The notes under the pieces: generated by a model
Database searches by the model: none
What the model was told of the DNA's origin: nothing
What the model saw: the letters and a program-made list of their open reading frames with translations, nothing else
NCBI GenBank assembly: GCA_038997165.1
Contig: JAWBAK010000001.1
Span: forward strand, 61,926 to 125,925
Length of the DNA: 64,000 bases
DNA from: Candidatus Aenigmatarchaeota archaeon
GTDB lineage: Archaea > Aenigmatarchaeota > Aenigmatarchaeia > CG10238-14 > SpSt-28
Direction of reading: 5' to 3'
Program-made: the position numbers and the translations under genes
Part shown: in pieces, positions 2 to 34,214 of the stretch
Layout: every line of letters starts with the position of its first letter
Numbering within the stretch: position 1 is the stretch's first letter

Positions 2-3000
2 CTAAATTTCCCATTATTTTTTGCTTGTGGTAATTTTTCAACTAAGTTACAAGTTTTTAATAAAGGTAATTTACCTGCTTATAACTTTAGAATAAATGAA
101 ACAAAAAGTGATATACTTAAAACTCATCCTGGAGATTTAATTTTCTACGGTTTTAATCCTTCTAATCCTTATTTAGAACAATCAAAACTAATTAGCTGGG
201 ATGGAGGAATAAATTTCATAGCTACAGGTAAAGATAATGCAATAAACTTTACTTATTCAATTTTTGTACCATATCAAACTAATGGTACTTTTAGTTTTCA
301 AGCCTTAGCACTTAATAATACCTTTAGCTTTTTCGACGAAGAATATATAATTTCAATTTCTTGTGGAGCTTCTTTAAGCATAGACCAAATTAGAATAAGA
401 AAAGGAGAATATCCAGAACCAACTATATATGTTAACGATATTTTTAACATTTCGGCAAACATTTATAATGATGGTCCAGGAAATGCAAGTAATGTAATAG
501 TTTGGATTAATTATACAAATGTAACTCAAATAAGAGGATTAGAAAATTTAAAAATTTATAATTCTAATGGAGAAGAAAGCAATATTATTTATTTAGGAAA
601 TATTTTACCAAAGGAAACAAAAATTGCCTTTAATGACTATTATTTTACAGTAAATACTTCAGGAGTTTCTCCAGGAATAATAAGATTTTGTATTAATGCA
701 AACGCTACTGAAAATTCTACAATAGTTTCTTCTTGCAGAGATATTACAATAAATGCTCCACCAGCATTAATTGAATTAGAAAATCCCATTGCTATTTCAA
801 AAGAAACAGGCTCATCTTTTGGCTCTTGGAGCTTTAATTTTACTTTTAACGTTTCTGTAAGAGTTTCGAATTCAGAAAATGATGTTCAAATATGTGCATG
901 GTTTAGCAAAACTGGAATGGAACCATTTAAACTAATTGGTTGTGATATTTATCCTGCTCCAGGAAATAATATCGGAAGTTGGAGAAATTATTCTTTTGAA
1001 TATTCTCCAAGCTGTGAAGATATTGGTAATCCTGTATTTATTAAGTTTAATGCAACAAACTTTGCAGGATCTTCTAATTCTACAACATTACCATTTACTA
1101 TCACTAAAAGTAAAATAGTATTCGATGAAATTTTAGGAAATAATACAGAAACTAGAAGAGGGAAAATGCCTACAATTCTTGGTGTTAGAGTAAAAGATAT
1201 AAATGGAACTTATATTTCTAACTTACCATTAAGATTTTACGTAAGTTTAAACGAAATTGTTTTTGATGCAGGTAATACAGTTTATACAAATGAAAGTGGT
1301 TATGCAAACTATAACTTTTTAGCAGTTTGTACTCCAAAATACTTAGTTGGATATCAAAAATGGAAAGCTGAATTAAAAGATAACGAATGTTATTTTGATA
1401 ATTCTACAGAAAATTATTTCGATTTAAGAGTTTTAGTAACTGGAGATATTTTACTATATATAGTTAGGCCAGATGGTAGTACAAACTATACTCAAGAAGA
1501 TACTATTACATTCTTAGGTTATGTAACAGATGATTGTGGAGATCCTTTAACGGCAAGCGTTATATTTTTTGCAAATCATAGCATAGAAAGCTTTGAATGT
1601 TCAGATGTAACTCAAGTAGGTTCTAATGCATATACTTGCGATTGGCATACAGAAATTACTACACCAATGGGTTGGTATAATGTTTCTATGTATGTAGAAA
1701 AAGAGTTTCATTATTCGAATTGGAGTATAAAAGCTAAAGATCCAGGACTATTCTATTTAGAACCTATTTATAAATTAGAAGATCCACAAGCATATCCAAT
1801 AAGAGAAGGATGGGGATATAAAAACTGGAATTTTAGTGTATTTGCATCTAGTGGAGATAGTGAAAATGAGTTTGACGTAAATATATATTTAGGAGATTTG
1901 TGGCCACCAGCAAAGCCTTGTGAAGAGTGTATAAATATTACTCCAAAAACATGCTTTAATTGTTATAAGCAATTGGTTGTATTTTTAAGAAATTTCACTG
2001 CATATGAAATAGGTACTTGGTACTATAGATTTTCCTTAGGACCAACATCAACTACTCAAGTTAAATATGTAATAGTTGAAAAAGATGACACAACAATGGA
2101 ATATGTTAGTGGAAATAATTCTATAGTAATAAGAAATTCTCAACCAGCATTACTTTCTGTTAGAGTTTTTGACTTAGATGCAAATACTTATGAATTAAAT
2201 CCGCCTGCATTAGTTACTTTTAAATTATACGATGAAAAATATCCAAATGGATATAAGGTTATTGGAAGTGTTTATACAAATTCTTCTGGATATGCAAATC
2301 TATTGCTAAACATAACAGAATGTACTGGTTGGCTTGAAGGAATTCAAAAATGGAGTGCAGAAATAGATGATAATGATAACTATTACAAAAAATCTTCCAT
2401 AGGAAACTTTACAATAGAAATTCAATTACCAGGATGCCAGCCGCAAGTATATATTTATTCGATAGAATTACCAAAAGAAGCATTTCAATATAAAAATTTC
2501 ACAATAGTAACATATGTTACTTCTTGGGTAGGAGATGCTGAAGGTGTTTATATAAATATTACTTTACCAGATGGTTGGTATACTGATGAGCAAACTAAAT
2601 ATTTGGGAAAAATATATGCTAACGAATTCAAAAAAATTTATTGGAATGTTTATGCTAGTACATTTGGAGAGGGAAAAGCAATTTTCTATATAAACTCAAG
2701 TAATGCTGGTTATAAAAGATTGGAAAGTAATAATATTGTCGTTTATAAATTTTCTCAATCAACAATAAACTCGATAATTAATATTAATAGTAATGATTTT
2801 GAAATTTTAGAATTTGATTGCGAAACTGGTAACTATAGAATTGCAAACTTAACAATAAAAATTTCAGAGAATTCAAATAATTCAACTCTAAAAATTGAAT
2901 CTTTTAACTCTTCTAACTGGATAAAAATTGAAAATAATTTAGAAGTTATTAGCAATAGCTTCTATTTTATTCCAATATTAGCTAATCAAATTTCAAGCAA

Positions 3001-6000
3001 TTCTGATGGAAAATGTTTAGTAAAAATAACAAATGTTGGAGATAAAAATGTAATTATAGAAAGTGCAACCCTTACTTCTTACTATAATGAAACTTTAAAA
3101 ATAGATGGTATAAAAGTTTTAGTTAATAATTTTGAAGTAGAAAGCATAGATAAAACAGAAAGTTCATTTAATATTTCTGTTAGAATAGGAAATTCCTTAG
3201 ATATAAATAAAGATGGTAATTTAACTTTAAAGATTTTGAAAGATGGAAAGGAAATTTATTCGAATTATAAAGAATTTACAATAAATGCAAATAGCTTTAC
3301 TTTTATTAATTTTACTGATATTCAAACAAGCAATTGGGAAGAAGGAATTTATGAAATAATTGCAATACTCAATTCTTCAAACGAAATTAAATTATTAAAA
3401 AGAGAAATAGTTTTTAGTGAAATAAAAATCGATATAACTTCTCCAAAATATCAATGTAATTCTTCAACAGAAAAAATTTATTTAGAAATTTATCAGCCAT
3501 TAGAAGATTATATTTCTTATAACATTTCTTTACAAATTCCAAATAATTGGGATTATAATCCTAAATACATATACTTAGAGCCAAAAGGTAAAGGATTTTA
3601 TTTTGCCGAATTTAATTTAACAGCATTTTCTGAAATTGAAGAAGATTATCAAATAATAATTGTAATTAATTACACTTACGCAAACAATACAAAAAGTTTA
3701 ATTAAACCTATAAACATAAAAGTTTCTCCAAACATTCCAATTTTAGAAATTATAAGAGAATTACCAAGTTTAGTTTCCACATCAATTGTTTTTAAGCCAA
3801 GAATAGTTATTCATAACAAAGGTTGTGGGATTGCTAATAATGTAACTATTAAAGAATATATTTCAGCCGGTTGGATAGGGGCAAACCCAAGCATTGCAAA
3901 GAACGAATATGCTAATGATCCAGAAGTTTCTGATAAAGATGTTGATTTAATTTATTCTGAAACGGACTTAATAAATAATATACTAACTTGGCAATTAAGC
4001 GATATTAAGCCAAATAAATATGCTGTACTAACATATCAAATAAAAGCTCCTCCAACATTATTTACAGCTGGTTACTTAAAGTATAATATAAGCTGGAATA
4101 ATGAATATTATATTGAAGAAAAAATACCATCAAAAGTTTATACATATAGATATCCAGAAGAATCTCATTTAGAATTTGATTTAATTGCTATTCAAACCTT
4201 AGAATATCCATGGCCAGAAGTAAGAAGCATTCAAGTTAATAGAGAATATAACTTTACTTTAAAAGTTACAAATATTGGAGATATAAATACTAATAATGAT
4301 TGGACTATTAAGCTTTATATTCCAAAAGAATGCGAAGTTATTAATGTAGAAAATGGAATATGGAATGAAAGTGAAAGAAAAATAGTTTGGAGTTTACCAA
4401 ATATTTCAACTTATCAAACATCATATTTTAACTTTACTTTGAAATGTAATGAAGAAAAACAATATGTTTTAATTGCTGAAGGAATAAGAGATACTAGAAG
4501 TAAAGTAAGCTTTGAAAATTCTACATCAATTTATTGCGAATCTTATTCAAAACCTGCATATTGTTATTCTAAATTAGATTATATCTTAGCAAAACCAACA
4601 AATGCTAGATATGAAAAATTATCCAATATAACTATTGAGTTTTTGAATAAATATTCTGGAAATAATTTAACAATTGGAAATTCTTACATAAAAATTTTTG
4701 ACGATTTGCTTAATGAGCATATAATATGGCAAGACTATTCTTTCGAAGAGAAAAATGAAATAAAAACAAAGCAGCTAATAATTTATGAAAATCAAGAAAA
4801 TTTTGTTAGTAATATAAAAACTTTTGAAATTAGCTCATATTCTGATGCAACAGAAAATACTTATACTAACATTTCAATACTTAAAATTTATTATACTTGG
4901 GATTTAGGAAAATTGTTTAATGAAACTCAAAACCTATTTATAAAATCTAAGGTTTATGATTATACACCTCTATTCAGAAACGCAAAGCTCTATATTAATG
5001 GTAACGATTCTATAAAAGTTGGAGGCTGGGGAGAAAAATTTGAATTTAGTGTAGAGGTTAGAGATAGATTTGGAAGAGATGTTATAGTTAGAATGTATCA
5101 TAGAAAAGTAGGTGGTGAGTGGAGTTTAGTAGATGAAAAAGTTTGCTATTCTTGCTTAGAATGGACTCAATTTAATTTTAGCTATGATTACGATTATACA
5201 GATATATCAAATTGGGAATTCAAATTTGAAGGAATAAATTCAGATGGTATTAGCGAATATTATGGATTTGTATATACTGTTGAAAAAGATGATGTTGAAT
5301 TAACACCAATTCAACCACAATGGAACGAAACTGTTTTAAGAGCTTATGGATATAACTTTACGATTTACGCTTTCGATATTGATAATAAAACTATTCCATA
5401 TGTTTTGGAAGATTATAAAGCTTTTGTTGCCTTAGGTCAATATGGAAATAACTTAACTTATAAAATATATACATTATCTCCATCAATTAATGAAAGTGGC
5501 TACATAATTTTAAAAGTTACTAATACAGAGTTTTGTAATCCAGCAAACAACTATTATTTAGGTCAAAACTACTGGTTTGGTGGAATTCAAGGATCTGCAT
5601 ATTATAAAGATGTTAATACAAGAATTCCACCATATAATGCATTACCATATGTATTAATAGGAAGCTTATATAATAACATAATTTATCCAATTAATGTTAA
5701 CTTTAGTTTCGAATTAGATACAATTACTTTAAGAGGAGTTGTTTACGACGATTGTGGAAATATAAGAGCTGATGAAGATATGTATGTATATTTCAATTTA
5801 ACTAATGGAGATTATAATTATCAATGCATAGCTACAAGAGTTGGAAATGAATTCCAATGTACATTTAATCCAAGAAGTTTAAATGCACCCTTAGGTTGGT
5901 ATAACATATCTATGTATTCTTCAAAGCCATTACATACAGATGGTATTTATAGTGTAAATAATGCATTCTTCTTAGCAAGCATACCAAAAATAATTAATAT

Positions 6001-9000
6001 ATCTATTAATCCTTTTGGCGGTCCTTGGGGTTTAAGTCCATTTAATTTTAGTGCATACATTATTGATGAAGATGGAAATTTTGTTAATATAACTCATTAT
6101 TTAAGAAAAGTTCCAGAACAATATTTTGTTGCTTATATTGATAATTGCACAAATTGTAATTATTATTTAACTTCTTTCCTTAGAAATTTTGTTTGTGATT
6201 ATGAAAATATTGAAGTTGGAGAATGGAGATATAAAATTGAAACTAAGGATGAAGCTGGTTTTTCAAATACATCTCAAGAAATTTCATTTACAATAGAAAA
6301 AGAACCAATTAATATATCGCTATTTGAAAGCGTTCCGTTAATTAACAGAAGTAATGTACCAAATTCGAAAGCATACAATTTATCGGTTACTATATTCGAT
6401 ACTATTTTAAATAGAAATGTAACAGAAATACCTTTTGTATATTTAAAATTAGAAGGTCCAGCAACTTTTACATATGAAATGGAAAAGGATGAAACTCAAG
6501 AAAAATATTATTATGAATTTCTTCCAGGTTGTAGTTATCCTGTAGGAGAATATAAATGGTATTCTTATGTTTTAAACGATTATTGCTATCAAAATGCAAG
6601 AAGTGAAAATTATACAATAAACATTTATGGAAGCCTTTCTGTTAACATAATTTCTCCAACAGATTATCAGATTATTCCAGAAGGACAAAGTGTAACTATA
6701 AGATCTAATATTATAGATGATTGTGGTGTTTCAATAACCAATGCTAATGTTTATTATATTTTAAGAAATGAAAGAACTCAAGAAGAATTTAGATGTCCAG
6801 AAAGTGGGTTTGCAAATTATGATGGAACTTCTTATGTTTGCAATTTTAATACTAGTGGCAAACCTGGAGGAAATTATACTATAATAGCTTACGCATCAAG
6901 AAATTATTATTGGGATTCCTTAGCTATAAAAGAAAATGCATTCTTTCTAGTAACTCCAGTAAGAATTATAAATGTTACTATGAATTATGAGCATGATGGT
7001 AGCTGGGGTGAAATTCATAATTTTACAGCTCTAATAGATCATTATAATGATGTTATTGTATGTTTATTAGAAAAACCAATAGATGCACAAGAATACCAAG
7101 TTACTGAATGTAAATATGTAGAAAATCCATCTGGAGGAAAAAAAGTAACATTTAATAGAAGATATACATGTTCAAATTTTGTTAGAAGTCAATTCTGGAA
7201 TTATAAAATTAATGCTACAGAGCCAGGAGTACCTTCTTCTTATAGCGAAAGTCAAGAATATCAACATATGCTACAAAAAAATGATTTATCGCTAATAATT
7301 TATTATAACGATTCTGAAGCAAAAAGATATGGAGATCAAAGGGCAAGATTAATAGTATATGCATATGATTTAGATCAAAAACAAGCTGCATATGTTAGTG
7401 CATATAATTCACCAAATATTAAATTTAATGTATATAATGGAAGTTCTTTTGTTTTTGTTGGTGCAAACTCAACAAATTCTTCTGGATATTCGACTCTATT
7501 TTTCAAACCTGATTGTAGCTTTGATGTAGGAATTAAGGAATGGTATGCTTATACAGAGGCTGATGCATGTTATAAAAATGTAATTTCTGATAGATCAAAT
7601 ATTACAATAGTTGGTCTGTTAAATCCATATTTAGTTTCTCCGATTAATGAAGAATATACAAGATATGCTGAACTATACATAAATCTTTCTGCAATTGTTA
7701 AAGATGAATGTAATTTAATTACATTTGAAAATGCCACTGTTACATTTATTGCAAAAAGTGTTGCTTTTGGAAGCGAATACTTATGTTCAGACGTTACTTA
7801 TTCTAATGGTTATTATAATTGTAGCTTAAATGCAACTTTAATAGAGGAAGGTTGGTATAATGTAAACGTTACAGCATCGAACGTTTTATATTATGATGAT
7901 TACTATTATCTTCAAACAAATTCCTTCAAAATAATTCATAGCTTAGTTCCTCCAGTATTAAGCAATGAGTATGCTTATCCTGAGCAAGATGGAGGTTGGG
8001 GAGAAAGATGGTATTTTAGAGTTAATGTTAGTGATTTGAATGGAGACGATGTAAATATTTATCTTTGGATTTCAAGAGATAGAAGCAATTGGGAACTAGT
8101 AAATCAAACTATTTGCTATAATTGTGGATATGAAAGAACCATAGAACTATCTTATAAAGGATTTACATGCGAAGATTATTTAAATCGGCCAATATACTTC
8201 AAATTCAATGCAACAGATGCTTATAATTCAACAGATAGAAATCCCATAGCTTTATATCTTGATAAAAATGATTTAAGAATTGAGTATTATAGTGGAAATG
8301 AAAGCAAAATAATAAGAAATGTTGGTGGAATATTACAAGCTAGAATTTATGATTTAGATTTTGGAGATTATGCAGATTCTCAAGTTGCTCTATACGTAAC
8401 TACTGATAGAAATAATTATAAGCTTGTAGCAATAAATAATTCATTAAATTCTATAGCTACATTATTCTTTAATCCAACATGCGAATTTGATGTTGGTTTG
8501 CAATATTGGAAAATAGGAAGTTATAATGATGCATGCTATAAAAATGTAAACTCAAGCGATTTCAATTTATATGTAATAGGAAATATCGATGCAAACATAA
8601 CTTATCCAAAAGGAGATAAATTCTTAAGAGGCTCTAATGTAACTTTAAATATTTCAATTTTTGATGAATGTTCAGAAAACATTCCACTAGAAAATACAAA
8701 AATAAATATAACGATGATAAGTAATAGAGATAAAAGCATAAGATATTGTACTGAAATAATTGAATTAGGAAATGGATTATACTCCTGTACATTTAATTCT
8801 TCTAACTTCACTCCAAATTATTATAACGTAACTCTAAATATTTCTAAAGAATTATATACGAATAAAACAAAAACATTTTCTAATGTATTTTGGATTGAAA
8901 CAAATCCAATACTATTTAATTTAAGAGCAATTCCAAATGTTTTAGGCTGGGGAGAAACTTTAACAATAAAAGTTAACTTTACTGATGAAGATTTAGATAC

Positions 9001-12000
9001 TCATACTATAAATGTTTATTTAATTAAAAGTGATTATTCAAGAGTAAGAACTAGAAATATTTTAAATGTTCAAGGAATAAATGTTGAAGCCTCTACACAA
9101 TTTACTTTCACATCTGCAGATATTGGAGATTGGTTTGTAATTGTTAATGTAACCGATGATTTTGGCATTGCTGAAATAAATACTTCAATTACAATTGAAA
9201 AAGACGATACTATTATTGAATATATTAGTGGAAATAATAGTATAGTTCATAGGATTCATAATACAACAACTTTTGAATTAAGAGCTATAGATATAGATAA
9301 TCCATCAAACAATATTTATTATCAGCCAGCTGGTTTTTGGGTTACTTCAGATTATGTTAATTATATTTATATTGGAACTGTATATACTGGAAATAATGGA
9401 TATTTTAATATAACTTTTGATCCTGATTGTAGATTTGAAACAGGAATTCAAAAATGGAAAGGAGGATTATTAGAAAATCCGAATTGGAAGACGTCGAATT
9501 CTTCAGAATATTTTGTTATAATAGTTTCTGATTTAAGTGGAAATATTATTCAGCCAGATGGAAACATTCTTTTAAGAGGCGTAGATTCTTTAAATATTAG
9601 AGCTACTGTTAGCGATGAATGTAAATATGTAAATGGTGCTGATGTTTACTTTGTTGTAGGAAATGAAAACATAAATATTACATGCGATAATGTTATAAAT
9701 GATAATCTAGGAAATTATACTTGTAGTTTATCTTCTAGTACACTTGAAATATTGCCATATGGTTGGAATAATATAACTATGTTTGCAAGGAAAGATTTTT
9801 ATGAAAATGAGTTAGTAATTACTAAACAAAACGCTTTCTACTTAGCAGATAAGCCAAAAATTGAAGATGTTTATGTAACTTCAGCAACTTGGAGATGGGG
9901 GACTGTTTTTGAATTCGTAGGTAAACTATATGATTTGGATCCAGATAATAAAACTGTTTATTTATGGATTAGTAGAGATGGTAGTAATTGGAGATTAATA
10001 AATCAAACAACATATTATGGCCCAACACCACCAGGAGGAGTAGATATTAAATTGAGTTTTATTCCTACTTGCAATGATGTAGGAAATTGGTACTTTAAAT
10101 TTAATGTTACCGATACTAGTGGATATTCGAGCGAAACATTTGGATATCAATTTGAAATACTCAAAAGACCAGCAGTTATAAGCGCTATAAGTGGATTAAA
10201 CAAAATAATTCAAAGAGAGGGTTCTGTTTCCACAACACTAAGAATAAAAGCTATAGATGCAATAGATGGAGCAAATATAAATAATGCAAAAATAAAATTT
10301 ATAACTATTAATAAAACTGGTCACGAAGTAACTTATGAAACTTGGACAAACCAATCTGGTATTGCATCTTACATTTTTGATCCAGATTGTTCTTACGGTG
10401 CTAATAAAACATATTGGAAAGCAATTCTATATAATAATTCATGTTATGAAGATACAGTTTCTCCAAATTTTGATATATACATTTATGGAAAATTGTATAA
10501 TAACCTTGTAGCTCCTTCACAAGGATCAACATTTCCATCTAGAACAACATTTAATATTTCTTATTATATAACTTCAGATTGTAGTGATGAAGGATTAATT
10601 GAGAACGCAAACGCAGAGATTAAAGTGTATGATCCGTTAAATCAAGAAATTATATGTACTCCAATAATTGAGGAAAACGGATATTATAATTGTACTTTTG
10701 ATACTACAGGCAAAAGAGCTGGTGTATATTCGATAACTCTAAACTCAACAAAACAATATTACTTCGGAAGTTATACTAATTATCCAAACTGGTTTAGCAT
10801 ATATAATTCTCCACCAACATATTCAAACATATCTGTCTCTCCATCTATTGCTCCATGGACATCAATACTAAACTTTAGTGTTTATGTTTCAGATGCTGAT
10901 AATGATGTAGTAAGATGTTCTCTAGAAATTAAAAAAGGTTACTCGTATATAGAAGTTGCAACTATGGAAATAAATGGAAATGGTCTTTGTAGTTTTTTGA
11001 TTAGCGATTTTAGCTGTGATGATATAGGAACTAATTACTTTAGATTCTCTTTAAGCGATGGATATAACGATATAGTCTATACAGAAGAGCAATCTTTTGA
11101 ATTAACTAAAAGTCCAGTAGTTCTTAATTTGATTAGTGGAAATGGAACAAGTGTAAGAAGAAATATAGCCTCGACAAACTTAAGAATTAGCGTTTTTGAT
11201 TTAGTTAAAAATTCATTAGTCGGAACTTCAATATTGCCAGAAGCATATGTGAAATTTAATATTACATTTGACAGCTTAAATTATATAAACTTAGATGAAG
11301 TTTCTACAACATCAGGATATGCAGAAGTTATGTTTTCTCCAGATTGTTCTTTCTCAGCCGGAACTCAATATTGGTATGCCTACATTAGTGAAAACGATGT
11401 TTGCTACGAATTCAATCAAACAAATAATTTTGAAGTATATGTAATAGGTAGTTTAAACCCATCTATCATTGAACCTACCAATTTATTTAAAGTATATAAA
11501 GGGAATAACGTAAGCATTAGAGCGAATATTCAAGATGATTGCAATGAAAATGTTAGCGTAGATTTTATACAAATTAATCCAATAAGCAGAATTACAGGTC
11601 AAATGTTTAATTGTATTGTTTCAGAAGAAAATATAGGAATCTATAACTGTAGTTTTGAAACTGTAGATAAACCAGCTGGAGCATACGATATTAGAGTAAA
11701 TGTTTCTAAACAATATCATGTCTCAGCAATATATACAGAAAGTAATGCGTTTTTCATAGAAACCTATCCTTCATTAACAAACCCATCTGTTACACCAATA
11801 GTTGAGGGTTGGGGTAAAACAAGAACATTTAGTATTACAGCAAGTGATGAAGATAGAGATGCTTTATATGTCTGCTTATATTATAGACCGAAAGGAAGTG
11901 AAGATTGGAGCTTAGCGTCTTGTAGAACGAAACCTTCTGGCATTGCTTCACAAACATTAACATTTTCTAGAACATTTAGCTGCGATAATTTATTAGGACA

Positions 12001-15000
12001 AGAAAGTATAGAATATGAATTTTTCTTTAATGTTACGGATGATGACAATAATATAGCGGAAAGTGAAATAAAAAACTTTACTCTTGAAAGAGATGATATT
12101 TCAGTCAGTTTAGCAGAGAGTTATGTAGAGTATAATAGAAGTAGTACAGAAAAGGCTTCTCTAATAATTTCAATAAGAGATTTAGATGCAAATTCCTATG
12201 CAACGAGAGCTGTTAATGCAACATTATATGTAACTAGAATTCCAGGAACAACAAACTACTTTATAGATAACGTTTACATAAATAGAAATCCTGTTCTAGG
12301 AAACATAACATTTTACTTTCCACAACAAAACAAATGTTTATATAAAGTAGGGCCACAAAAATGGTATGTAAGTATAAATTCAAGTTGCTATAAACCAGCG
12401 AATTCTCCAATAGGAACTCTTAATATCACGAGCTTGCCTCTAAATTCGACATTAATATATCCTATAGGAGAATATTTCCCACAAGGATATAATATACCAA
12501 TAACTGTAGAAGTTTATGATGATTGCGAAAAAGTTGATGGTGCATCTCTTTCAATAGAAGTTATAAATCCAAACAACGAAACTATTGAATGTTATCCTGT
12601 TTCGAATCTTGGAAATGGAGGCTATAGGTGCTCGTTTAGCGATACTTATTTATTGGGAAGCTACACAATTAAAACACAAGCAAATAAGCAATACTATCCT
12701 GAAGGGTATATTAATGAATTTCCAAACGCCTTTTTCATTACTTCAGCACCTTTCATAGATTCCACAGAAGTCTATGCAAGTAGAACATCAAGCGAAGAGG
12801 GTGGATGGGGAGACACATGGTTCTTTAAAATAAGAGTTTATGACGAAGATCAAAGTTTTATAGAGTTTGAAAAACTAAATATTAGTTTATACATAGATTT
12901 TGGTAATGGATACGAATACATATCTTCGCAAATATGTGAAGCTCCAGAATGTGCAAGTCTAAAAGAATTTGTTTTTACGCATACATTTGATTGTTCAAAG
13001 ATTGGTGATAATAAGAAATTTAAGTTTATAGTTAGAGATTTCTTCAATAATACTGTTGAATCTGCCGAAGGGTATTTTAACATATTACCAGATGAACCGC
13101 AAATAACAATTCTAAGAAAGCCAACAAGAATTAATAGAGAAGGGAATTTTGCTGATATGTTTAACATTTCTGTTATAGATGTAGATAGAGGAGTTCCAGC
13201 AAATGCTACTCTTACATTATTTATTACAACGGATTCTTCGAACTTTAATTTCTATGTTAATCTAAATTCCGTAAATGGAATTGCTACATATAGCTTTGAT
13301 CCTGATTGTAGATTTAGCGCTGGAATTCAATATTTCAAAGTAAGCACAAACGATTCTTGCTATAAGCTCAAAACTAGCGATATTGACGAATTCGAAATTA
13401 TAGGAAGTTTACAAAACTATATTATTTATCCATATAGAAATTCGGATATTTTAATAGAATTTGGAAAAATCGAAAATATAACTTTAAATGTTAAAGATGA
13501 GTGTGAAAATGATATTGAAAATGCTAATGTTAATCTAAATGCTATTTGGCCAAATAATTATATAGAAAATATTCCTGTTTATGAAGAAAATAGTGGAATT
13601 TATAATGCAACTTGGAATTTAAGTAGAAAAATTGGTGGATATTATTCTTTTGTTTTTAATTCTTCCAAGGAATATTATAATTCTAATTCAACATTATTCT
13701 TAAATTGGATTTATCTAAATAATACTCCACCAATAATTGAAAATATAAGTGTTAATCCATTAGTTGGTGGATGGGGAGAAACGTTTACATTTAGCGCAGA
13801 TGTTTTTGATATTCAAAGAGATGATGTTGTTTGTAAGCTATATGTTTATACAGGGAAAAATACTTGGTTATATAAAGGAAGTGTAACTATTAAAGATGGG
13901 GTTGGAAAGTGTATAATAAATGTTAGTGATTTTGATTGCTCAGATATTAATGTTACTTCTTTGAATATGTTTAAGTTTGAAATTTCTGATGTAAACAATG
14001 TTTTTAATACTACAGAAATTTTTGCACCAGCAATAGGTAAAAATGATGTTGAAATTTATTATGTATTTGGAAATAATAGTTTCGTTAATAGAGCGTATTA
14101 CAACACAACCTTATTATCTTTAAGGATATTTGATAAAATTAAGAATACATTTGTAGGTTCTAATGTTAGAGGTTTTGTAAAAGTTACTAAAGATGGAAGT
14201 AATTATGGAGAAGAAATTATAAACTATACCAATTCTTCTGGATATCTAAATGTTTATTTCGATCCAAGCGGAGATTATGAAGTAGGTATTCAAAAATGGC
14301 TTGGAGGAGTTTTGAACGATAATTGTTATTTAGATAAAAATAGTGAAGAGTATTATTTAACTATCTTAGGAGAAATAGCTCTTAGTTATTTTGGAATAGA
14401 TAGAGAAGATGCTCGATACCTTAAGCCAAAAGATGATATTACAATTACTATAGCGCTTCAAGATGATAGGGGCTCGTATATAAATGATGCAAACGTTAAT
14501 ATAACTTTAATAGATGAGTTTAATAATAAATATATTTGCCCTATAAGTAATCTTGGCGGTGGAACTTATCAATGTTCTATTAGCACATCTGTCTTAGCTG
14601 CTAGATGGTATAACGTTTCTATATTAGCTAAAAAAGAATATCATTTAGATCTAAATGTTACATTTTCCAACGTATTTTTCATAGAAACAGAGCCAAAAGT
14701 ATATAATATAAGTGCTATTAGCGAGGAAAACTCAAATATTGGTGGATGGGGAGAAACGTGGAAATTCGTTGCAATTTTTGAAGATGAAGATTTAGATAGA
14801 AATGAAATTTGGATTCAAATCAAGCCAGAAAACTCTGAAAATTGGTATACTGTCAATAGTACTATAATTTCTGGAATTAATAAGACAACTATTGAACTTA
14901 TAGTGAAAGATCCAGGATTACTACAACAATATTTAGGCATATGGAATGCTCAATTCTATTCAATCGATAATAGAGGATATATAAGTTATAGTGAAATTAT

Positions 15001-18000
15001 TAATTTCACTGTAGAGAAAAATGATGTAAGAATAGAATTAGTTGAAGGAAATAATTCAACTGTATGGCGAAATAATACAGAATCTGTAACTTTAAAAGTT
15101 AGAATTTACGATTTAGATCAAAAGATATATGTATCTTCTCCTTCAGCAAAAACATATTTCTTTATAACTTATGATGGAAATGTTTTTGATGAAGGAAGAG
15201 AAACTTATACAGATAATGAAGGTTATTCATACATTGATTTCGATCCAGATTGTAGATATAAGACAGGTGTTCAAAAATGGGTTGTGAAGATTATTAACGA
15301 TACTTATTATAAAGATTCTTCATCTCAAAACTTCACATTAAACATTTACTCTACTTTAATTCCGAATGTAACATTTCCAGATGGACATGCATTTTTAGTT
15401 GGGGAATTAGTACCTATAAATGTTAGCCTAAGAGATGAATGTGAATATGTAAATAAAGCAAGTGTAACAATAAGAGTTAGATATTTAGCAACTACATATA
15501 CTTGCACTCCAGTAAATAATATTGATAATGGAATTTATAACTGTGTTTGGGACTCTAGTGGAAAAGCATATGGAGGTTATGATGTAATAGCTATTGCTTC
15601 GAAATCTTTCTACGCATCTAATTCAACGACAAAACCTCTAGCATTTTATTTAGCATCAATACCACAGCTTTCTAACGCATCTGTTAATCCATTAGTTGGT
15701 GGATGGGGAGAAACGTTTACATTTAGCGTAAGATTAACTGATTTAGATAGAAATCAAAATAATGTTACCTTATGGAAAAGTTATGATAATCAAAGTTGGA
15801 TTTATGTAACAAGTAAATTAGTTACACCAACATATGCAGGATATTTAGTAAGTTTTGTTGTAACGTTTGATTGCGAAGATTTATTAAATGGTCCTCTAGT
15901 ATATTTCAAGTTTTCATCAAAAGATCAATTCGGTTATTATAATGAAAGTGGAATAATTAATGTTACATTTGAGCAAAACGATGCTTCATTAAGTATTATA
16001 GAATATAATTCAAGCGTTAGAAGGCTAGAAAACAATATATCGTATTTCTTACTTAGAGTTTACGATAGCGATAGAAAAGTTTATCCAAATAATACAGAAG
16101 TCACTTTATATATAACTGAAAATGGAAATGACTATACAATAGAAATTATTAATCAAACATATTTAGGAAATGTATCTTTCTATTACGATCCTACATGCTC
16201 TTCAAACGTAGGAATTCAAAAATGGTATGCGAAAATCACAGATGTTTGTTATAAAAATGTTAATACAACAGAAAGAGCTTTAACTGTTATTGGACAATTA
16301 TATATAGACATCTTGAATCCAAAAAACAATCAAATCTTAAACAGAAATACTACTTATTACTTTAATTCTAGCGTATATGATGAATGTAATTTAATAATCG
16401 ATAATGCAAATGTTAGCTGGTTCTTTGGAAATACAAGAATTGGTACTACGTATAACGTTACATATACCATTCCATTTAACTATAAGTTAGGATTAGAAAA
16501 TGTAAAAGCAAACACTTCTAGGATTTATTACGATCCAAATGAAAAGGTTATAAATGTTTATGTTTATGGATTTGCAGATTTAACAGAAATTTATCCACAA
16601 ACAAATTCAAAATTCTTAGCTGGAGAAATAGTAAATTTAGTTTGCAGAGTTATGGATAAAAATCTAAATGTACCAATCGAAGGATATACAGTATATTTCT
16701 ATAGAAACGATACATTAATAGGAAGCTCGCTAACAAATTCTAGTGGATATGCAACATTCAGCTGGTCAACAGTTAACGAATTAGCTGGATTTGTAGAGAT
16801 GAAATGTAGGATAACTAACGACGATATTAAATATTATAATGCATCTATTTCAGAAATTTCTTCTTTAATAAGAATTAGAAGACCTATAACAATAAGAGAG
16901 ATTTCTGTTACACCAAATGAAATTTATAGAAATGATACTTTTTCACCAAACATAGCTACTATAAAAGTGAGAACATATGATTCAATAATAGCGGCAACAA
17001 GTAATGCAATAGTTTATTTCTATAACGAAACAGATTTAATTGGAAACTGCACACCAGATTCTTTTGGCTATTGTTCGATAACATATAATCCACCCAACGA
17101 AACTAATGTTGGAATTAAATACATTTACATAAACGCAACACCAACGATAGAAGGTAGAGAAAACTCAGATACATATATCACATCTTTTATAGCAAAAGGT
17201 AAATTATATATTCAAATATTAGAACCTTCGAACTCTAGCATATTTGCAAAATCTTCAACAGTTAATATAAGAACTTATGTAACTAGTGAAAATGGCGAAA
17301 ATATTCCTGCATTATATCCAAATTCAAGAGTAAATATTACAAACTCTTCGAGCATAATTGGTTTCGCTTATCCAACAGGGGAGGCAAATATTTATGCTGG
17401 AAGCTTTAACTTATTAGATCAAAAAACTGGATGGTTAAATATATCTACTATAATAAACATTCCATATTATGATTCTGCAGTAGATTCTATATGGATATTA
17501 GTAACTGGTTTAGCTGGAGTAGAATTTACATTTCCAAGCAATAACCAAGAAATAACTTATCCTTCAACAATATATCCAACTTGCTTAGTTAAAGATTTAG
17601 ATAGTGAAATCGGAATAGAGAATTATCCTGTAGAATTCTATTATAAAACGTCAAGTAGCGATTGGATATATGTATCTACAGAAATAACGAATTCTAGTGG
17701 ATTAGCAAACATATCTTTTACAACCCCATCAAAGGGAGAGTTTTACTTTAAATGTGTTATTAGCGATAATGCAACTTTGGTATATTCTGCTATATATAAT
17801 GAAAGCATTGTTAGAATTTTAGTTAAAGATCTTACCCCACCAGAAATTTTAGAAACTTCAATAAGTCCGACATATGATATAGAGGCAAATAGAGATTTTG
17901 TAAATATTTCTGCAGTAGTATCTGATAACATAGGAATTAGTGAAGTCTGGGCAATGATTGGCTTGCCAAATGGTAGTTCAGTAAGAGTAAATATGAATAA

Positions 18001-21000
18001 AATATCTGGAAATTTAACATATGGATTTTATTCAGCCATTTATATTCCTCCAATAGGCGGAGAATATAATGTAACAGTATTTGCAAAAGATTTGCCACCA
18101 GAAGCAAATGTTAACTCATCTTTTGCAGGAATTTTCTACGTATTTGGAAAAACTAATCTTGAGCTTAACGTATTTCCAGAAAACATTATTGCAGATGGTA
18201 TTACAATATATAATGGCTATCCTTTTGAAATAATAATAAATGTTAGTAATTTAGGTCCCGCGACAGCATACGATTTAAACATAACACTATTTGATGACAG
18301 TGGAAGAATTGAATATTCAACTAATATTATTACTATTTCTAACATAAGCAGGTATATAAACATCTCGCAAATGATTATGGCAAGAGTAAAAGAAGCTACA
18401 CCAGCACAAACCATTAATATATTCGTTAACCTAAGCTGGAGAAATCCAGATTTAACATATAACTATACTGTTAAAAGAATATTCGTAATAGTTGCAGAAA
18501 ATCCAAAATTAGAAATTAAGCCAGAATATATCAATGAAGTTGTTGAACACGACACAATAAAGATTATAGGTAGTGTAAACATTACAAATATTGGAAACGT
18601 GCCAATTACCGAAATTTTACTCTCTACAGATTTAAACACTCCGTTTTATATGTATTGTTTGAATTGTTCCATATCACTATTTCCAACATATCAAGGATTC
18701 TTAGCAATGGGTCAAAGCTTTATTAGTGAAATTACTGTTAGTATTCCTGCGGGCCAAGATCCTGGAAGTTATTGGAGTAGGATATTAGTTTCTTCAAAAG
18801 AGGCAGCCACTGTTTATTCAATAATAAATATAACTGTACCTATAAATAATTCTTGGATTATTGATAAAGAGATTAGTGGAATAATTCTAGCTCCATTAGG
18901 AACTAAAAAAGAAATTGACAAAATTAACTTTTCGAATATTGGAAATGTTAATGTAACTATCTCTATATACTTAAGTGGAAGAGGTGCCGAATTAGTAAGA
19001 GTAGAAAATAGAAGTTCATTTTCTTTTGTATTACCAAAACAAAAAGAAAGATTAGTTTCATTTAGTTACGATATACCAAAAACTAAAAATGAAGGACTTT
19101 ATGATGTAAGAGTAGTAATGGTAAGTACAGATGGTTATCCGAATCTAAGAGAATTTATATTTACGTTAAATGTAACAGATATTCCACCAATAATAGAGAA
19201 TGTAACATTTTCAAAAACAGATTTTGAAATAAACGAAACTATAAATGTAACTGCAAAAATATATGATAACATTGAATTAGATAAAGCTTGGATAAACATA
19301 TCTTATCCAAACAATACTTATGAAATTAAATTGCTGAAGAAATTGCAAGACGATATATTCTACGAAAATATTTCATCTAGAATTGCTGGAGAAATTAAGA
19401 TATCAATCTGTGCAAACGATACTAAAGGTTTAACCAGTTGTACAGAAGAGTTTATAATTAGAGCTCATTCAAAAACTATTTTAGATGTTCTATCAGAAAA
19501 AATAGTTTTTGAAAACGTTACATTAAGAAATTCTCAAACAAAAACAGTTATACTAAACTTAACTAACTTAGGTTTTGCAAGAGCATTTAACGTTAGTATA
19601 AAAGGTGAAGATGAAATTTTTGATATTACTTTAACTAATGTATCATTAATTTTGGCTAGAGAAATAATTCCAGTAATTGTTAATATAACAGCATTAAATG
19701 GAACCTATAGTGGAAATTATTCTGCAAAAATAAATATAACTTGGATTAATTTAGATGGAAGCATTGAAAGTAAAATATCTTTAATTCCAATAGAAGTTTT
19801 GCCAGTTCATTTGATAGAAATAGAAAATAAAACAGAATATATTAAAAACAATGAAGAAAGAATTGTTAATATATCTTTATCTGCTGTAGGAAATGTTAAC
19901 GAAACTAATATAACATTAATTTGTTCTGCAAACTGCGAATTGTTTAAAATAGATCTAAACGAAACTATTGATAATATAGCACTTGGAGAAACCATAGAAA
20001 TTCCAATAAGAGTTTTTGTTCCTTCTGATTTAGAAAGTGGGGAATATATGGTTGAGTTAAAGGCTTATAATGAATTTACTTCAGCAACCGGATATCTAAA
20101 AATAATCGTTCCTATAAACATTTCTTGGGAAATTTATCCAATTTATGAAGAAATAGAAAGCGTACAGGGAGAAGAATTATTTAGAAATATAACAATAAGA
20201 AATACAGGAAATTTAAGATTGTTATTGAATTTGTCTTCAATAGCAATAAACGGATCTAACTTTATATATTTTGAAAATGATAAAAACTTTACTACAATAA
20301 GTTTAAGAGTTGGTGAAACAAAAATTATTCCAATAAAAATAGTTGTTCCTATAGTTTACGATTATTCCATTTTTGAAAACAGAATAGTTTCGCTTAACTT
20401 TACAACTCAATCTGGCTTAATAACTAAGAATTCTACATTTATACTTAAAATACATCCATTATTTGTAAAAATAATCGAACCTACAGAATCGAATCCACTA
20501 AAAAGAGTTGTTGCTGGTGATACTATTTATGCTAAGGTAAATGTAAGTTATGGAAATGAAACTTTAACATCTAATGTTAGTTTTCAAATATTTTTATCGA
20601 ATGAAACATATAGGCATGAAATAGAAAATTTCACAGCTCAATTCTTAGTAATTGAAAAATTATGGTTATTAACATTCATAGCTCCTAATTTAACAGAAGG
20701 AATAGGATATGATTTAATCGTTAATGCTACATATTTATTAAAAAATGTTTCAAAAATAGATGTAGAACCAAAATCAATAATTTATCTTGACACTATTCCG
20801 CCAGAAATTGAAATAATTATTCCGGCTAGAATTAGAGTTAATACATCAGCTATATTCTGGTTTAATATAACAGATTTAGGTGGAGTAGAAAGTGCTAATG
20901 CTATAATAATTAAACCAGATAGCAATATTAGTGAATATAATTTAACGTTTGTAAAAAGAATAGGAAGTACATATATATACAAATTAGAGTTTAATGAAAC

Positions 21001-23685: not shown

Positions 23686-24918
23686 ATGAAAGAAGAATTA
23701 TTAAAACAAAAAAAAGAGATTGAAGATTTATTAAATGAAATTGAAAATAGTTATAGAAAAGGTGAAATAAGTGAAGAATCCTACAAAGAAATTATTGAAG
23801 AAAATAAGAAAAAATTGGAAGAAATAGAAAAGAAATTAAAAGAAATAGGAGAAAAAAGAGAGGAGAAAAAAGAGAAAAAAAGTAGAATAGAAGAAATTAT
23901 TGAAAGAGTCTTTAAAGTAGAGAAAGAAGTTTCTTCAAAAGAAATTAAAAAGGTTCAAGAAGATTTATCAAAAGTTAGTGTAGAATTAGAAAAAACAAAA
24001 GCATTGATCGATACACTTAAAGAAATGAAACAAACAACAGATGAAAAAATTATAAGAATTACAGAAAATATTGGTGAGTTGAGATCTATGTTAGTTGCGA
24101 GAGAATCTAAGGTTAGAGAGTTAGAAGCTAATGTTGAAAGAATGAAAGAAGTTATAAAGGAAATTGAGCCTGAAAAGTATATGAAAGAATTGAATAAAAT
24201 AAGAAAAGAAATTGAGTTATTTAGAGCTAAGGTTGAAAAAGTTGAATATTTAAGTGGAGAAGCTGCGAAAGCTGTTAAAGAATTGCAAATGCAATTAAAG
24301 ATAATAGGAAATGTTGAAAATTTAGCAAAATTAAACAAAGAATTGCAAGATAAATTAAAAGAAATTCAACTGATCTCACAAAAAATCGAAAATATGTCGG
24401 CTAAAATCGAATCTATATTTGTTGAGCTTAACAAAAAAATGAGAGATATAGAAATTTTAAAGGATAAAGTCGACGTACTATTTCAAAATTACAATGAGCT
24501 TAGTAGAAATGTTAACGATGCAATTAATAAATTAGAGAATTTTGTTACAAAAAACGAATTTAATAGCTTTAGAGATTATGTAGGTAATTTAGAAAAGCAA
24601 ATAGTTGAAGCTGAAAAGAAAAAAGAGAAAAAAATAGAAGAGGAAGCAACAAAAAGAATTAAAGAAATTGAGGAAGAAATTGAGGGAATTAACTTATTAA
24701 TTCAAAGTTTAGAAGAAATGTTAAATGAAGGAAAAATTTCTAAAGAAGAATATGAAAGCTTAAAAAATACGCATATTCAAAAAATTAGAAAACTAGAAGA
24801 GGAAAAGGAAAAAATATTGAATGATAGAAAAATGAGCAAAATTGAAATGAAATTAAGAGAACTATATGAAAGAGGAATAATAAGTGAGGAGCTTTATAAA
24901 AAACTTACTAAAAAATGA
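23686..24918 (+). CDS. 410-aa K/E-rich coiled-coil protein with three SHOCT-like motifs
   Basis: ATG lies 2 nt after the giant gene's stop. Heptad-rich throughout, no TM. GxISxExY motifs: RKGEISEESYKEIIEENKKKL at the N-terminus, NEGKISKEEYESLKNTHIQKI in the middle, ERGIISEELYKKLTKK at the C-terminus. Its TGA stop overlaps the next start (ATGA at 24915). Confidence 0.8.
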   Translation: MKEELLKQKKEIEDLLNEIENSYRKGEISEESYKEIIEENKKKLEEIEKKLKEIGEKREEKKEKKSRIEEIIERVFKVEKEVSSKEIKKVQEDLSKVSVELEKTKALIDTLKEMKQTTDEKIIRITENIGELRSMLVARESKVRELEANVERMKEVIKEIEPEKYMKELNKIRKEIELFRAKVEKVEYLSGEAAKAVKELQMQLKIIGNVENLAKLNKELQDKLKEIQLISQKIENMSAKIESIFVELNKKMRDIEILKDKVDVLFQNYNELSRNVNDAINKLENFVTKNEFNSFRDYVGNLEKQIVEAEKKKEKKIEEEATKRIKEIEEEIEGINLLIQSLEEMLNEGKISKEEYESLKNTHIQKIRKLEEEKEKILNDRKMSKIEMKLRELYERGIISEELYKKLTKK

Positions 24919-30674: not shown

Positions 30675-31442
30675 ATGGCAGAAATTATAGCCTTTTTATC
30701 TGGAAAAGGTGGTGTTGGTAAGACTACTATTGCAATTAACATAGCAAACGTTTTGTCGACATATTTTAGAAGAAAAGTATTAATTGTCGATACAAATTTT
30801 ACAACCTCTCATTTGGGTTTAAGTTTAGGAATTTTTTATCCAGAAGGAAATTTAAATAAAGTATTAAGAGGAGAAATGAATGTTGAAGATGCTATACATA
30901 ATTATTCTTTAGGTCTTGACTTATTGCCGCTATCTTTATCTATTAGAGATTTAGAAGGGATTGATATATTAAAATTTCCAAGAGTTTTAGAAAGTGTTAA
31001 TTACCGATATGATTATATAATTTTAGATGCAGCTCCAGGACTCGGAAGAGAAGCTATTTTATCTATTAAAAATGCTAATAAAATAGTTTATATTGCTCTG
31101 CCTATAATGCAAAGTGTTGTAGATATAGTTAGAACTCAAGAAGTTGTAAGAGAGTTTGAAAAAAAAGAATTAGGAATTATATTAAACATGGTTAGAAACA
31201 AACCTTATGAAATGAGAGATAACGATATTGAAGGATTAACAAATTTAAAAATAATTGGAAAAATTCCATATGATGAAAGATTTTTAATTTCAAATGCACA
31301 TAAATTGCCCTATACAACCCTTTATCAAAATAACAAAACTTATGAAGAATTTCTAAAGATTTGTAGTATTTTAACAAATCAAAAAATAGAAATTAAAAAA
31401 AGTTTGTTTGGAAGAATATTAGAATTTTTATTTAAAAAATAA
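30675..31442 (+). CDS. MinD/ParA-family (SIMIBI) ATPase, 255 aa
   Basis: Deviant Walker A FLSGKGGVGKTTIAINIA. Blocks VDTNFTTSHLGLSL and IILDAAPG (Walker B-like). Size typical of MinD/ParA/Mrp. Confidence 0.85.
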   Translation: MAEIIAFLSGKGGVGKTTIAINIANVLSTYFRRKVLIVDTNFTTSHLGLSLGIFYPEGNLNKVLRGEMNVEDAIHNYSLGLDLLPLSLSIRDLEGIDILKFPRVLESVNYRYDYIILDAAPGLGREAILSIKNANKIVYIALPIMQSVVDIVRTQEVVREFEKKELGIILNMVRNKPYEMRDNDIEGLTNLKIIGKIPYDERFLISNAHKLPYTTLYQNNKTYEEFLKICSILTNQKIEIKKSLFGRILEFLFKK

Positions 31443-31454
31443 TATATATTAATT

Positions 31455-31682
31455 ATGGTTTACAATATAAGTTTAACATTAATATTAGCTATATTACTAA
31501 TTAGTATCTCTTTTTTATTTTTATTAATATATAAAAAAAGAAAGAAGAGTATAGATGAATTAATACAAGAAATTGAAAATAATCTATTAGATATTAAAAA
31601 AAATCTAGAAAATATTCGTTTAATTTTAAAAAAAGAGCAAAAAGAAATAAAGAGAAAACATGCCAGAAAGAGGAGCATTTGA
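31455..31682 (+). CDS. 75-aa single-TM protein with a basic/coiled-coil tail
   Basis: MVYNISLTLILAILLISISFLFLLIYKKRKK... The hydrophobic N-terminus is followed by KKRKK. It overlaps the next ORF start by 23 nt. Short, so the call is uncertain. Confidence 0.45.
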   Translation: MVYNISLTLILAILLISISFLFLLIYKKRKKSIDELIQEIENNLLDIKKNLENIRLILKKEQKEIKRKHARKRSI

Positions 31683-33561: not shown

Positions 33562-34214
33562 GTGAAATTCTCGAAATATTGAAAAAGAAAAAAGAATATG
33601 AAAAAATTAGAGAAGAAATTAAGAATGTATCAAACAAATTAAGTCAATTAGAAAATAATTTTATTTATTTAAATAGAGAATTTAATAATCTAAAAGAGGA
33701 ATTTAATAAACTTAAAGAATTAGATCCTATACTTTCAAAATTATTAGAAACTATAAAAAAAATTGAGGAATTTGAAACAAATATAAAAGAAATTAAAGAT
33801 TTAAAAGAGAAATTGAAAATAGATTTAGAGAAAAAAACAAAAAAGAAAATAATTAAACTAATAGAAAAATTAAACTTAAAAGAAAATATTAAAAAAGATA
33901 TAGAAAAAGAAATGAATAAAATTTTAAATGAAAAAATTAATGAAATTGAGAAAAAATATTGGAAGGATTTATCTGAAATAAAGGAATTGAGAAAAAACAT
34001 TGAAAATTTAAAAATTGAAAAGAATAGATTGAATGAAAAAATTTTTGAGTTTGGAAAAATTGAAAATTATTTAAATGAAAAGATTAGAAGAATCGAAAAT
34101 GAAATTGAAAGAATTAAAGGAAAGGTAGAGGAATATGTTAATGAAGTTATAAAAGAAGTAGAGGAATATGTTAATAATTCAATTAAAAAAATTGTTAAGA
34201 ATAGGGGGGTTTAA
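33558..34214 (+). CDS. 218-aa coiled-coil protein
   Basis: K/E/I-rich heptads. Ends ...KNRGV with a G6 tract in the last codons (34204-34209). Confidence 0.7.
   Translation: MSEILEILKKKKEYEKIREEIKNVSNKLSQLENNFIYLNREFNNLKEEFNKLKELDPILSKLLETIKKIEEFETNIKEIKDLKEKLKIDLEKKTKKKIIKLIEKLNLKENIKKDIEKEMNKILNEKINEIEKKYWKDLSEIKELRKNIENLKIEKNRLNEKIFEFGKIENYLNEKIRRIENEIERIKGKVEEYVNEVIKEVEEYVNNSIKKIVKNRGV

Follow-up and report, generated by a model that had tools for sequence, protein, structure and literature searches.

The closest described counterparts of the protein analyzed here are the giant SPEARE proteins of Nanohaloarchaeota. According to the accessible portions of their description, these reach 8,553 amino acids (aa), are mostly extracytoplasmic, and have a C-terminal transmembrane segment and a conserved cytoplasmic domain, and similar cytoplasmic domains occur in Aenigmarchaeota, Micrarchaeota, Woesearchaeota, and Altiarchaeales (Hamm et al. 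2019, PMC6642349). The cytoplasmic domain of the nanohaloarchaeal giants is regarded as ResIII-like in that paper and as a VirB4/TraG-like ATPase in the available text of a later one, which describes ~75 tandem immunoglobulin (Ig)-like domains and a terminal coiled coil, proposes a secretion 'straw', and places a second VirB4/TraG-family ATPase gene directly downstream in nanohaloarchaea (Reva et al. 2023, PMC10266531). We analyzed a stretch of 64,000 nucleotides (nt) from a Candidatus Aenigmatarchaeota archaeon (GenBank assembly GCA_038997165.1, contig JAWBAK010000001.1, positions 61,926 to 125,925), hereafter called the window, in which a tandem array of a ~320-aa module lies in a giant open reading frame (ORF). 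We consider it rather probable that this region is the central stalk of a giant cell-surface protein of SPEARE-like design in a tiny symbiotic archaeon (Aenigmatarchaeota, DPANN), namely a host-contact rod with an ATPase anchor. All nucleotide coordinates are window positions on the + strand unless stated otherwise.

The array comprises 13 complete copies and one truncated copy of the module. An earlier note on this DNA, made from its letters alone, had counted at least 14 tandem copies between nt 820 and 16300; the 14 copies are found, although one of them is truncated, and the array is real and lies in one frame, but its end is at nt 16621. Module 1 (nt 806-1756) is complete, with three domains termed A, B, and D, and module 2 (nt 1772-2425) is truncated to domains A and B, its third domain being replaced by the start of an intervening block. 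Modules 3-14 are twelve contiguous complete three-domain modules (nt 4985-16621) starting at nt 4985, 5981, 6956, 7949, 8903, 9851, 10811, 11765, 12761, 13727, 14690, and 15659, and in these back-to-back copies the motif anchors recur with a period of 315-331 aa. A hidden Markov model (HMM) profile of the module was built from 12 segments, and the copies at nt 806-1756 and 1772-2425 were not in its training set. It matched module 1 at 158.9 bits (E 8e-51), module 2 over positions 4-215 at 88.9 bits, and modules 3-14 over positions 2-321 at 310-361 bits. When each copy was scored with a profile of the other 13, every copy reached 106-250 bits (E 1e-35 to 1e-78), with 183.7 bits for module 1, 106 bits for module 2, and 156-250 bits for modules 3-14, whereas reversed and shuffled protein controls scored below 0 bits against the module profile. 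The recurrence is therefore positional and not compositional. The conserved columns hold the motifs GGWGE, SGNNS..R, D.D, F.P.C...G.QKW...CYK, and DDC...C...G.Y.C, and in an alignment of 397 modules from 150 related proteins the motif columns W16, D133, W189, and C244 are conserved at 95%, 96%, 98%, and 94%, respectively. The strict, positionally conserved motif order described in the earlier note is thus borne out by the leave-one-out scores, the controls, and the alignment, and the alignment check that it had proposed, now carried out, leaves the compositional reading without footing. Pairwise identity among the window copies is 17-34% (median 25%). No DNA-level tandem repeat of the module was found with Tandem Repeats Finder, which rules out recent duplication or an assembly artefact as the source of the repeat.

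The whole array (nt 806-16621) lies within a single open frame (frame 2, nt 2-23683, at least 7,893 codons). Among its 7,894 codons, the only stop is the terminal one (nt 23681-23683), whereas each of the remaining five frames is broken by 416-1,009 stops. The GC content across the giant gene is 26-30%. Counted from its first ATG, the ORF covers nt 917-23683; however, frame 2 is open from nt 2, so that the giant gene begins upstream of the window. The part at nt 2-805 belongs to a beta-sandwich region of the ectodomain, which continues past the left window edge, as indicated by the open frame and by the closest relative (P0104, 74% identical). That relative has 1,231 additional N-terminal residues, including a signal peptide or N-terminal transmembrane segment, from which the full giant protein can be estimated at probably ~9,100 aa. 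Another relative, in locus L005, was called at 8,615 aa plus fragments.

The domain structure of the module was addressed with an AlphaFold2 model of the copy at nt 13727-14686, for which the other 13 copies were supplied as the alignment (14 sequences). The model is all-beta with three strand groups, a predicted local distance difference test score (pLDDT) of 91.7, and a predicted template-modelling score (pTM) of 0.78, the latter suggesting a fixed relative orientation of the three predicted domains. Domain A (residues ~1-105, ~105 aa) bears the GGWGE motif, domain B (residues ~106-218, ~113 aa) bears both the SGNNS..R..D.D and the F.P.C..G.QKW..CYK motifs, and domain D (residues ~219-320, ~100 aa) bears the DDC...C..G.Y.C motif. 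The earlier note had divided the module into four domains, the second and third of which are a single domain on the evidence of this model and of the domain A profile, which aligns over the entire B region (hhalign, 80 columns, E 1.4e-5). The model of three Ig-like beta-sandwiches, the fold matches, and the alignment of A with B collectively rule out the four-domain reading. The long rod of 14 x 4 domains envisaged in the same note remains a long multi-domain rod, but with three domains per unit.

Structural searches of the module with Foldseek returned generic multi-Ig and macroglobulin matches, among which the best rod-like ones were the adhesin extender regions 4p99 and 6xi3 (TM-scores 0.50 and 0.33). 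The third domain passes the Pfam Big_7 cut-off (44.3 bits against 24.1), and Big_7 matches six of the 14 modules individually (E <= 1); Big_1 and MG2 remain below their cut-offs. Pfam assigned no family to domains A and B, and searches of NCBIfam and of PDB sequences with the module profile gave no significant match. The repeat had been called unlike standard Ig arrays, but each domain has a generic Ig-like or macroglobulin-like fold and the third passes Big_7; it is only the three-domain combination that is unusual, not the single folds. Likeness to cadherin or CARDB domains had also been suggested. Neither family matches any of the 14 modules even at E <= 1, which excludes the modules from both, and the related profiles NPCBM_assoc and DUF11 match solely in the intervening block and in the membrane-nearest, C-terminal part of the ectodomain.

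Cysteine co-occurrence was computed over 397 modules from related proteins, the modules being the units counted. Columns 72 and 198, in domains A and B, both hold cysteine in 238 modules, only one does in 4, and neither does in 155 (phi 0.98). For columns 180 and 244, in domains B and D, the corresponding counts are 351, 25, and 21 (phi 0.62), and for columns 267 and 280, within domain D, they are 304, 8, and 85 (phi 0.94). Within domain A, columns 55/58 or 36/63 form mutually exclusive alternative pairs (phi 0.78 and 0.85, respectively). The cysteine count is even in 380 of the 397 modules, with up to eight conserved cysteines (four pairs) in each. Thus, the two or three conserved cysteines per module proposed in the earlier note as probable disulfides can be as many as eight, and from the even counts and the strict pairing in these sequences they very probably do form disulfides. 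In the module model, the paired cysteines and the conserved aspartates (columns 28, 32, 74, 86, 104, 133, 135, 242, and 243) sit in loops at strand ends, a position that fits end-to-end domain junctions. Since two of the cysteine pairs join neighboring domains (A-B and B-D), two disulfide staples per module can be proposed, and inter-domain staples appear, as judged from covariation, to be present at the A/B and B/D junctions. Stapling of two of the three junctions offers a testable reason why three domains make up the duplication unit.

To examine the distribution of the module, its profile was searched exhaustively against 1.84 billion cluster representatives. At E <= 1e-3, 1,531 representatives were recovered, 333 of them at E <= 1e-30. 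The best 150 of the 1,531 hold 383 full-length modules at spacings of mostly 310-350 aa, which identifies the three-domain unit as the repetition unit family-wide. The matches that carry an organism name are all from DPANN archaea, mainly Aenigmatarchaeota, together with Micrarchaeia/Anstonellales, Nanoarchaeota/Nanoarchaeia, Parvarchaeota-related lineages, and Ca. Haiyanarchaeum, in agreement with an archaeal (DPANN) origin of the window. The relatives are annotated as hypothetical, Ig-like, or DUF87/HerA domain-containing proteins. The window modules are 35-80% identical to their positional counterparts in other proteins and 24-33% identical to their own paralogues. Being nearer to counterparts elsewhere than to their neighbors, they are old paralogues. 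The protein of Ca. Haiyanarchaeum (P0003) is collinear with the window protein over ~4,500 aa at 38% identity.

The array is interrupted after the truncated second module by a block of other beta-sandwich domains of DUF11- and NPCBM_assoc-like type (nt 2426-4984). The earlier note had recognized an interruption of ~2.2 kb at 2700-4950; it exists, with bounds that give a length of 2.56 kb, but it is no insertion in this genome, since relatives as distant as 38% identity carry this conserved block at the corresponding position. The block is about 800-850 aa long, with Pfam DUF11 at aa 1409-1493 and a weak NPCBM_assoc match. A gap of 770-850 aa is found at the equivalent place in P0003, P0065, P0096, P0060, and P0043, and twice in P0005. 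Its position after the truncated second module in relatives marks it as a conserved design element, and this positional conservation among distant relatives rules out a mobile or recent insertion.

Downstream of the array, 3 or 4 additional copies of the third domain (nt 16622-17740) are recognized by partial HMM matches (positions ~210-311) and by Pfam Big_7. These are followed by a membrane-proximal ectodomain of ~1,300 aa (nt 17741-21616) with more beta-sandwiches, for which weak Pfam matches to NPCBM_assoc, Big_1, and Big_3_2-like families were obtained and which is collinear with P0022 and P0016 at 34-37% identity. The translation then shows a cysteine-rich knot (YVCGNGICEDRFGESNAICPLDCP) and a Gly/Pro/Ala-rich, low-complexity linker (nt 21617-21841), the latter with a 15-nt tandem repeat at nt 21694-21738. 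Standing before the last two ectodomain domains, knot and linker may be a hinge or a processing site. The last two beta-sandwich domains before the membrane (nt 21842-22495) show weak WxLIP_PGBD and NPCBM-type matches in translation.

A transmembrane helix followed by the basic stretch KLRKLKEKR is predicted at nt 22496-22570 from a hydrophobic segment in agreement with the positive-inside rule, and it corresponds to a long helix at residues 4-33 of a model of the C-terminal region. Before the helix, there are 283 N-x-S/T sequons, compared with 108 +/- 9 in shuffles of the ectodomain, and cysteine makes up 1.6% of residues; after the helix, both sequons and cysteines number 0. This division fits a predicted outside/inside topology, in which most of the chain lies outside the cytoplasm and a single transmembrane helix near the C-terminus leads to a cytoplasmic tail. 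The tail (nt 22571-23683, ~370 aa) carries a Walker A motif, GGTGSGKT, near nt 22733-22762, together with a Walker B-like motif that has an invariant D210-E211 in the family alignment. It scores 38.2 bits with Pfam DUF87, above the cut-off, along with weak ResIII matches, and its matches among PDB sequences are to HerA (E 5e-7). The AlphaFold2 model (pLDDT 87.3) begins with the transmembrane helix and closes with a coiled coil, whose helices span residues 326-351, 357-371, and 375-392 and after which the frame stops. Foldseek places HerA 4d2i first (E 6e-13), followed by TcpA and FtsK. By these sequence and model matches, the predicted cytoplasmic tail is a HerA/FtsK-superfamily ATPase. In NCBIfam, only partial matches to CedD, HerA, TraD, CedB, and TraB were obtained, at 14-44 bits against equivalog cut-offs of 366-970 (CedD, 43.8 bits against 600). 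All NCBIfam cut-offs being missed, orthology to a named member (HerA, CedB/CedD, VirB4, or TraD) is not supported. The tail shares Walker motifs, DUF87, and a RecA-like core with the translocases HerA (4d2i), FtsK (2ius), TcpA (6o1w), and CedB/CedD. However, HerA has an N-terminal barrel, whereas the window ATPase has none and begins directly after the transmembrane helix, and it is fused to an ectodomain of >7,000 aa, unlike the translocases of the superfamily.

A motif scan of GTDB species representatives for the ATPase gave at least 584 loci, and the nearest sequence mentioned here, from Aenigmatarchaeota (L007), is 90% identical. Of the 43 loci from species representatives whose upstream flank covers all of 10 kb, 41 carry full modules, and these stop ~6 kb short of the ATPase, as they do in the window. 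The family architecture runs from a module array through a conserved ~2,000-aa beta-sandwich base and a transmembrane helix to a HerA/FtsK-type ATPase, after which comes the gene of a coiled-coil partner. The heads of these proteins can be compared through P0017 (L002, 10001-25528), a complete protein of 5,175 aa with a signal peptide, a Peptidase_S8 (subtilisin) domain, an RCC1-type propeller, six modules, and the ATPase. Its head indicates that head domains vary by lineage and that stalk and anchor are conserved. Within the window, no laminin-G, toxin-like, or protease domain was found, the N-terminal head of the protein lying outside it.

The partner gene (nt 23686-24918) encodes a cytoplasmic coiled-coil protein of 410 aa with SHOCT-like motifs at its ends and weak Pfam SHOCT and DUF948 matches. 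Of 86 related loci, 85 have a homologue, which directly follows the ATPase among the loci whose gene positions were listed. The partner has no P-loop, and no ATPase gene stands immediately downstream of the giant gene in the window. The next gene (nt 24915-30641) encodes a second large Ig-rich membrane protein of 1,908 aa with an N-terminal signal or transmembrane segment, a C-terminal transmembrane segment, and a SHOCT-like tail. Over its full length it is 32% identical to a 1,955-aa protein encoded next to the giant gene of L001, it has a 1,649-aa counterpart in L005, and it probably belongs to the apparatus of the giant protein. The partner has SHOCT-like motifs of the form 'G(I/K)IS.EEY..L' at either end, and the 1,908-aa protein bears them too, at its cytoplasmic C-terminus, which hints at a common docking or oligomerisation motif.

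Further genes recur near the giant genes, namely those of a ~1,650-1,950-aa Ig-rich transmembrane protein, MinD/ParA ATPases, long coiled-coil proteins, and a TrmB-like regulator. In L002, a TrmB-like helix-turn-helix protein, a MinD/ParA ATPase, and a long coiled-coil protein are encoded beside the giant gene of P0017. The window has a stretch of very low GC content (17-22%) at nt 30675-41514, which encodes long coiled-coil proteins of 633, 218, and 1,045 aa, two MinD/ParA ATPases (nt 30675-31442 and 40789-41514), and a TrmB-like helix-turn-helix protein (nt 38101-38484). Another very large gene, at 45801-53429, encodes 2,542 aa with a PQQ/FG-GAP-type beta-propeller at aa ~1680-2040; beta-propellers are also the heads of nanohaloarchaeal giants and of P0017. 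L006 (1-11659) alone has a second DUF87 gene in the downstream position: its giant gene, which bears DUF87, stands directly before a separate ATPase gene (552 aa, DUF87/ResIII-like). This resembles the nanohaloarchaeal arrangement, and in that locus no module matches lie within 10 kb upstream. An Lhr-type large helicase (DEAD, Helicase_C, WH_Lhr, DEAD_assoc; 56646-59315) and a major facilitator superfamily transporter (60685-61722) are the only clearly housekeeping-type genes of the window, in which no tRNA genes were found.

Compared with SPEARE and the related nanohaloarchaeal giants (NAR1_1133, SVXNc_0300, and BNXNv_0298), as far as these are covered by the accessible text of the two papers, the window protein matches their architecture as described, the likeness being one of architecture and not of compared sequences. 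Shared features are DPANN membership, a length of 6,000-9,400 aa, a signal peptide, an ectodomain of mostly tandem ~100-aa Ig-like domains, a single transmembrane helix near the C-terminus, and a terminal coiled coil. The cytoplasmic P-loop ATPases agree in domain type, since DUF87/HerA and ResIII, the latter matched weakly here, are also the families that underlie the published assignments. In addition, relatives of the window ATPase fall in taxa that the available parts of PMC6642349 name for similar cytoplasmic domains. The systems differ in the downstream gene, which there is a second ATPase gene and here, as in 85 of the 86 related loci, encodes a coiled-coil protein. They also differ in the stalk, which is described there as generic tandem Ig-like domains and here is a three-domain super-repeat. 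The super-repeat, the paired cysteines, and the positional orthology are not mentioned in those parts of PMC6642349 and PMC10266531 that could be consulted, and within the literature accessible to us we found no earlier description of the three-domain unit with its probable disulfide staples. The literature on DPANN DUF87/HerA extracellular proteins and on Haiyanarchaeum, together with the YN1 attachment-organelle and ARM-1 cryo-electron tomography papers, likewise gave no description of the giant-protein family.

More distant likenesses are found in bacterial adhesins (MpIBP region II, 4p99; the tetra-tandem repeat of a large adhesion protein, 6xi3; SiiE and BAP), in which long rods of ~100-aa beta-sandwiches project a binding head and acidic residues occur at domain junctions. 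However, the adhesins are built from one domain type, often in near-identical copies, whereas the window unit combines three domain types in ancient copies that are ~25% identical. Adhesins are type I secreted and held in the outer membrane, and their extenders are stiffened by Ca2+, whereas the window protein has a transmembrane helix fused to an ATPase, and the rigidity of its rod would come from inter-domain disulfides. In the A-band super-repeats of titin (7- and 11-domain Ig/FN3), a fixed order of different beta-sandwiches is likewise the duplication unit, and positional homologues are closer to each other than adjacent domains are. Titin is eukaryotic, intracellular, without disulfides, and unrelated in sequence, so that the likeness is one of design only.

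In the proposed host-contact rod, each three-domain unit would be a rigid link, made so by the A/B and B/D disulfide staples, and the aspartate clusters in the loops at the stapled junctions would be putative Ca2+ ligands. The array would then form a stiff rod resisting heat and proteases, on the order of 100-150 nm if extended, which could hold the N-terminal head off the cell and toward a host cell. The single C-terminal transmembrane helix would anchor this rod to the HerA/FtsK-type ATPase. By analogy with its superfamily, the ATPase would form a ring and spend ATP on translocating a polymer, either DNA or protein, or on building or operating the structure, and the strictly co-occurring cytoplasmic coiled-coil partner would participate. 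Judged from architecture and analogy, the array would most likely serve an apparatus for host contact or transfer as its stiff, glycosylated stalk.

Several points weigh against this proposal. Host contact and surface location are argued from architecture and analogy, and the sole sequence link to nanohaloarchaea is a 61%-identical ATPase in a metagenome-assembled genome labelled Nanohalarchaeota (L032). The head region of P0104 shows only beta-sandwich domains (MG2, NPCBM_assoc), and the head of the window protein lies beyond the window. The ATPase falls far below every curated equivalog cut-off, so that its substrate cannot be deduced from family membership. Moreover, the case for the putative staples consists solely of cysteine co-occurrence and loop topology, and the co-occurrence counts tally modules rather than independent evolutionary events.

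Other explanations of the region have to be weighed against a host-contact stalk. The recurrence might be compositional, arising from an AT-rich genome and an Asn/Ser/Thr-rich protein, or the ORF might be an unexpressed relic, in which case the modules would have no structural meaning. The GC content of just 26-30% and the inter-module identity of 17-34% are what such an origin might leave, but we give it practically no weight, since shuffled and reversed sequences stay below 0 bits against leave-one-out scores of 106-250, AlphaFold2 reached its pLDDT of 91.7 from 14 sequences, and the frame has its single stop in 7,894 codons (416-1,009 stops elsewhere) and hundreds of collinear homologues. 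The controls, the intact frame, and the homologues together refute it. Alternatively, the protein could be a structural component of the envelope, such as an S-layer or sheath anchor, whose repeats give only bulk and glycan display. Archaeal S-layer proteins are indeed glycosylated, Ig-fold-rich, and often anchored by a C-terminal transmembrane segment, and such DPANN candidates have been described. However, they are about ten times shorter and lack a cytoplasmic ATPase, whereas the ATPase fusion and the partner gene are kept in nearly all loci of the present family, and the subtilisin and RCC1-type propeller at the tip of P0017 fit an effector or adhesin better than a lattice, which makes a purely structural role very unlikely.

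A more active role is implied by the 'straw' proposed for nanohaloarchaeal giants in the accessible text of Reva et al. (PMC10266531). In a type IV secretion-like or Ced-like system of this kind, six copies on a hexameric ATPase ring would bundle their stalks into a channel through which effectors or DNA would travel between the symbiont and its host, and the super-repeat would be the wall of a tube instead of a passive spacer. The ATPase fold is nearest to the hexameric translocases HerA and FtsK and the coupling protein TcpA, partial NCBIfam matches to CedD, CedB, TraD, and TraB were obtained, and a second DUF87 ATPase gene follows the giant gene in L006. We nevertheless regard a channel as unlikely. 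Each chain has a single transmembrane helix, none of the domains detected is of a channel-forming type, conduits built from Ig-like rods are not known, and 40 kb of window sequence yielded no further components of type IV secretion or Ced systems. Moreover, the window, like most of the 86 related loci, has a coiled-coil gene downstream and not a second ATPase gene, and the curated ATPase family cut-offs are all missed widely. An extension of the idea, which we hold to be quite improbable, is a hitherto unrecognized DPANN-wide organelle in which hexameric HerA/FtsK-type ATPase rings bundle six stapled glycoprotein rods of >100 nm into a single-polypeptide conduit or harpoon. The conserved coiled-coil partner and MinD/ParA ATPases would organise it from the cytoplasm, and the symbiont would use it to take up or deliver DNA or protein across two archaeal envelopes. 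If this holds, the organelle would correspond in archaea to conjugative or Ced-type machinery while following an entirely different design. A host-contact rod with an ATPase anchor remains the explanation that we prefer.

DPANN archaea need physical contact with host cells, and to our knowledge the molecules that make this contact are largely unknown. The stalk of a giant-protein family is now tied to a searchable unit, defined by a 317-position profile with four covarying cysteine pairs and found in ~1,500 protein clusters. The module profile provides an annotation marker for genes that are labelled 'hypothetical' or 'Ig-like domain-containing', and a single module of ~35 kDa is a rational construct for structure determination and disulfide mapping. 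If the family is continuous with nanohaloarchaeal SPEARE, a unified host-contact machinery would extend across much of DPANN.

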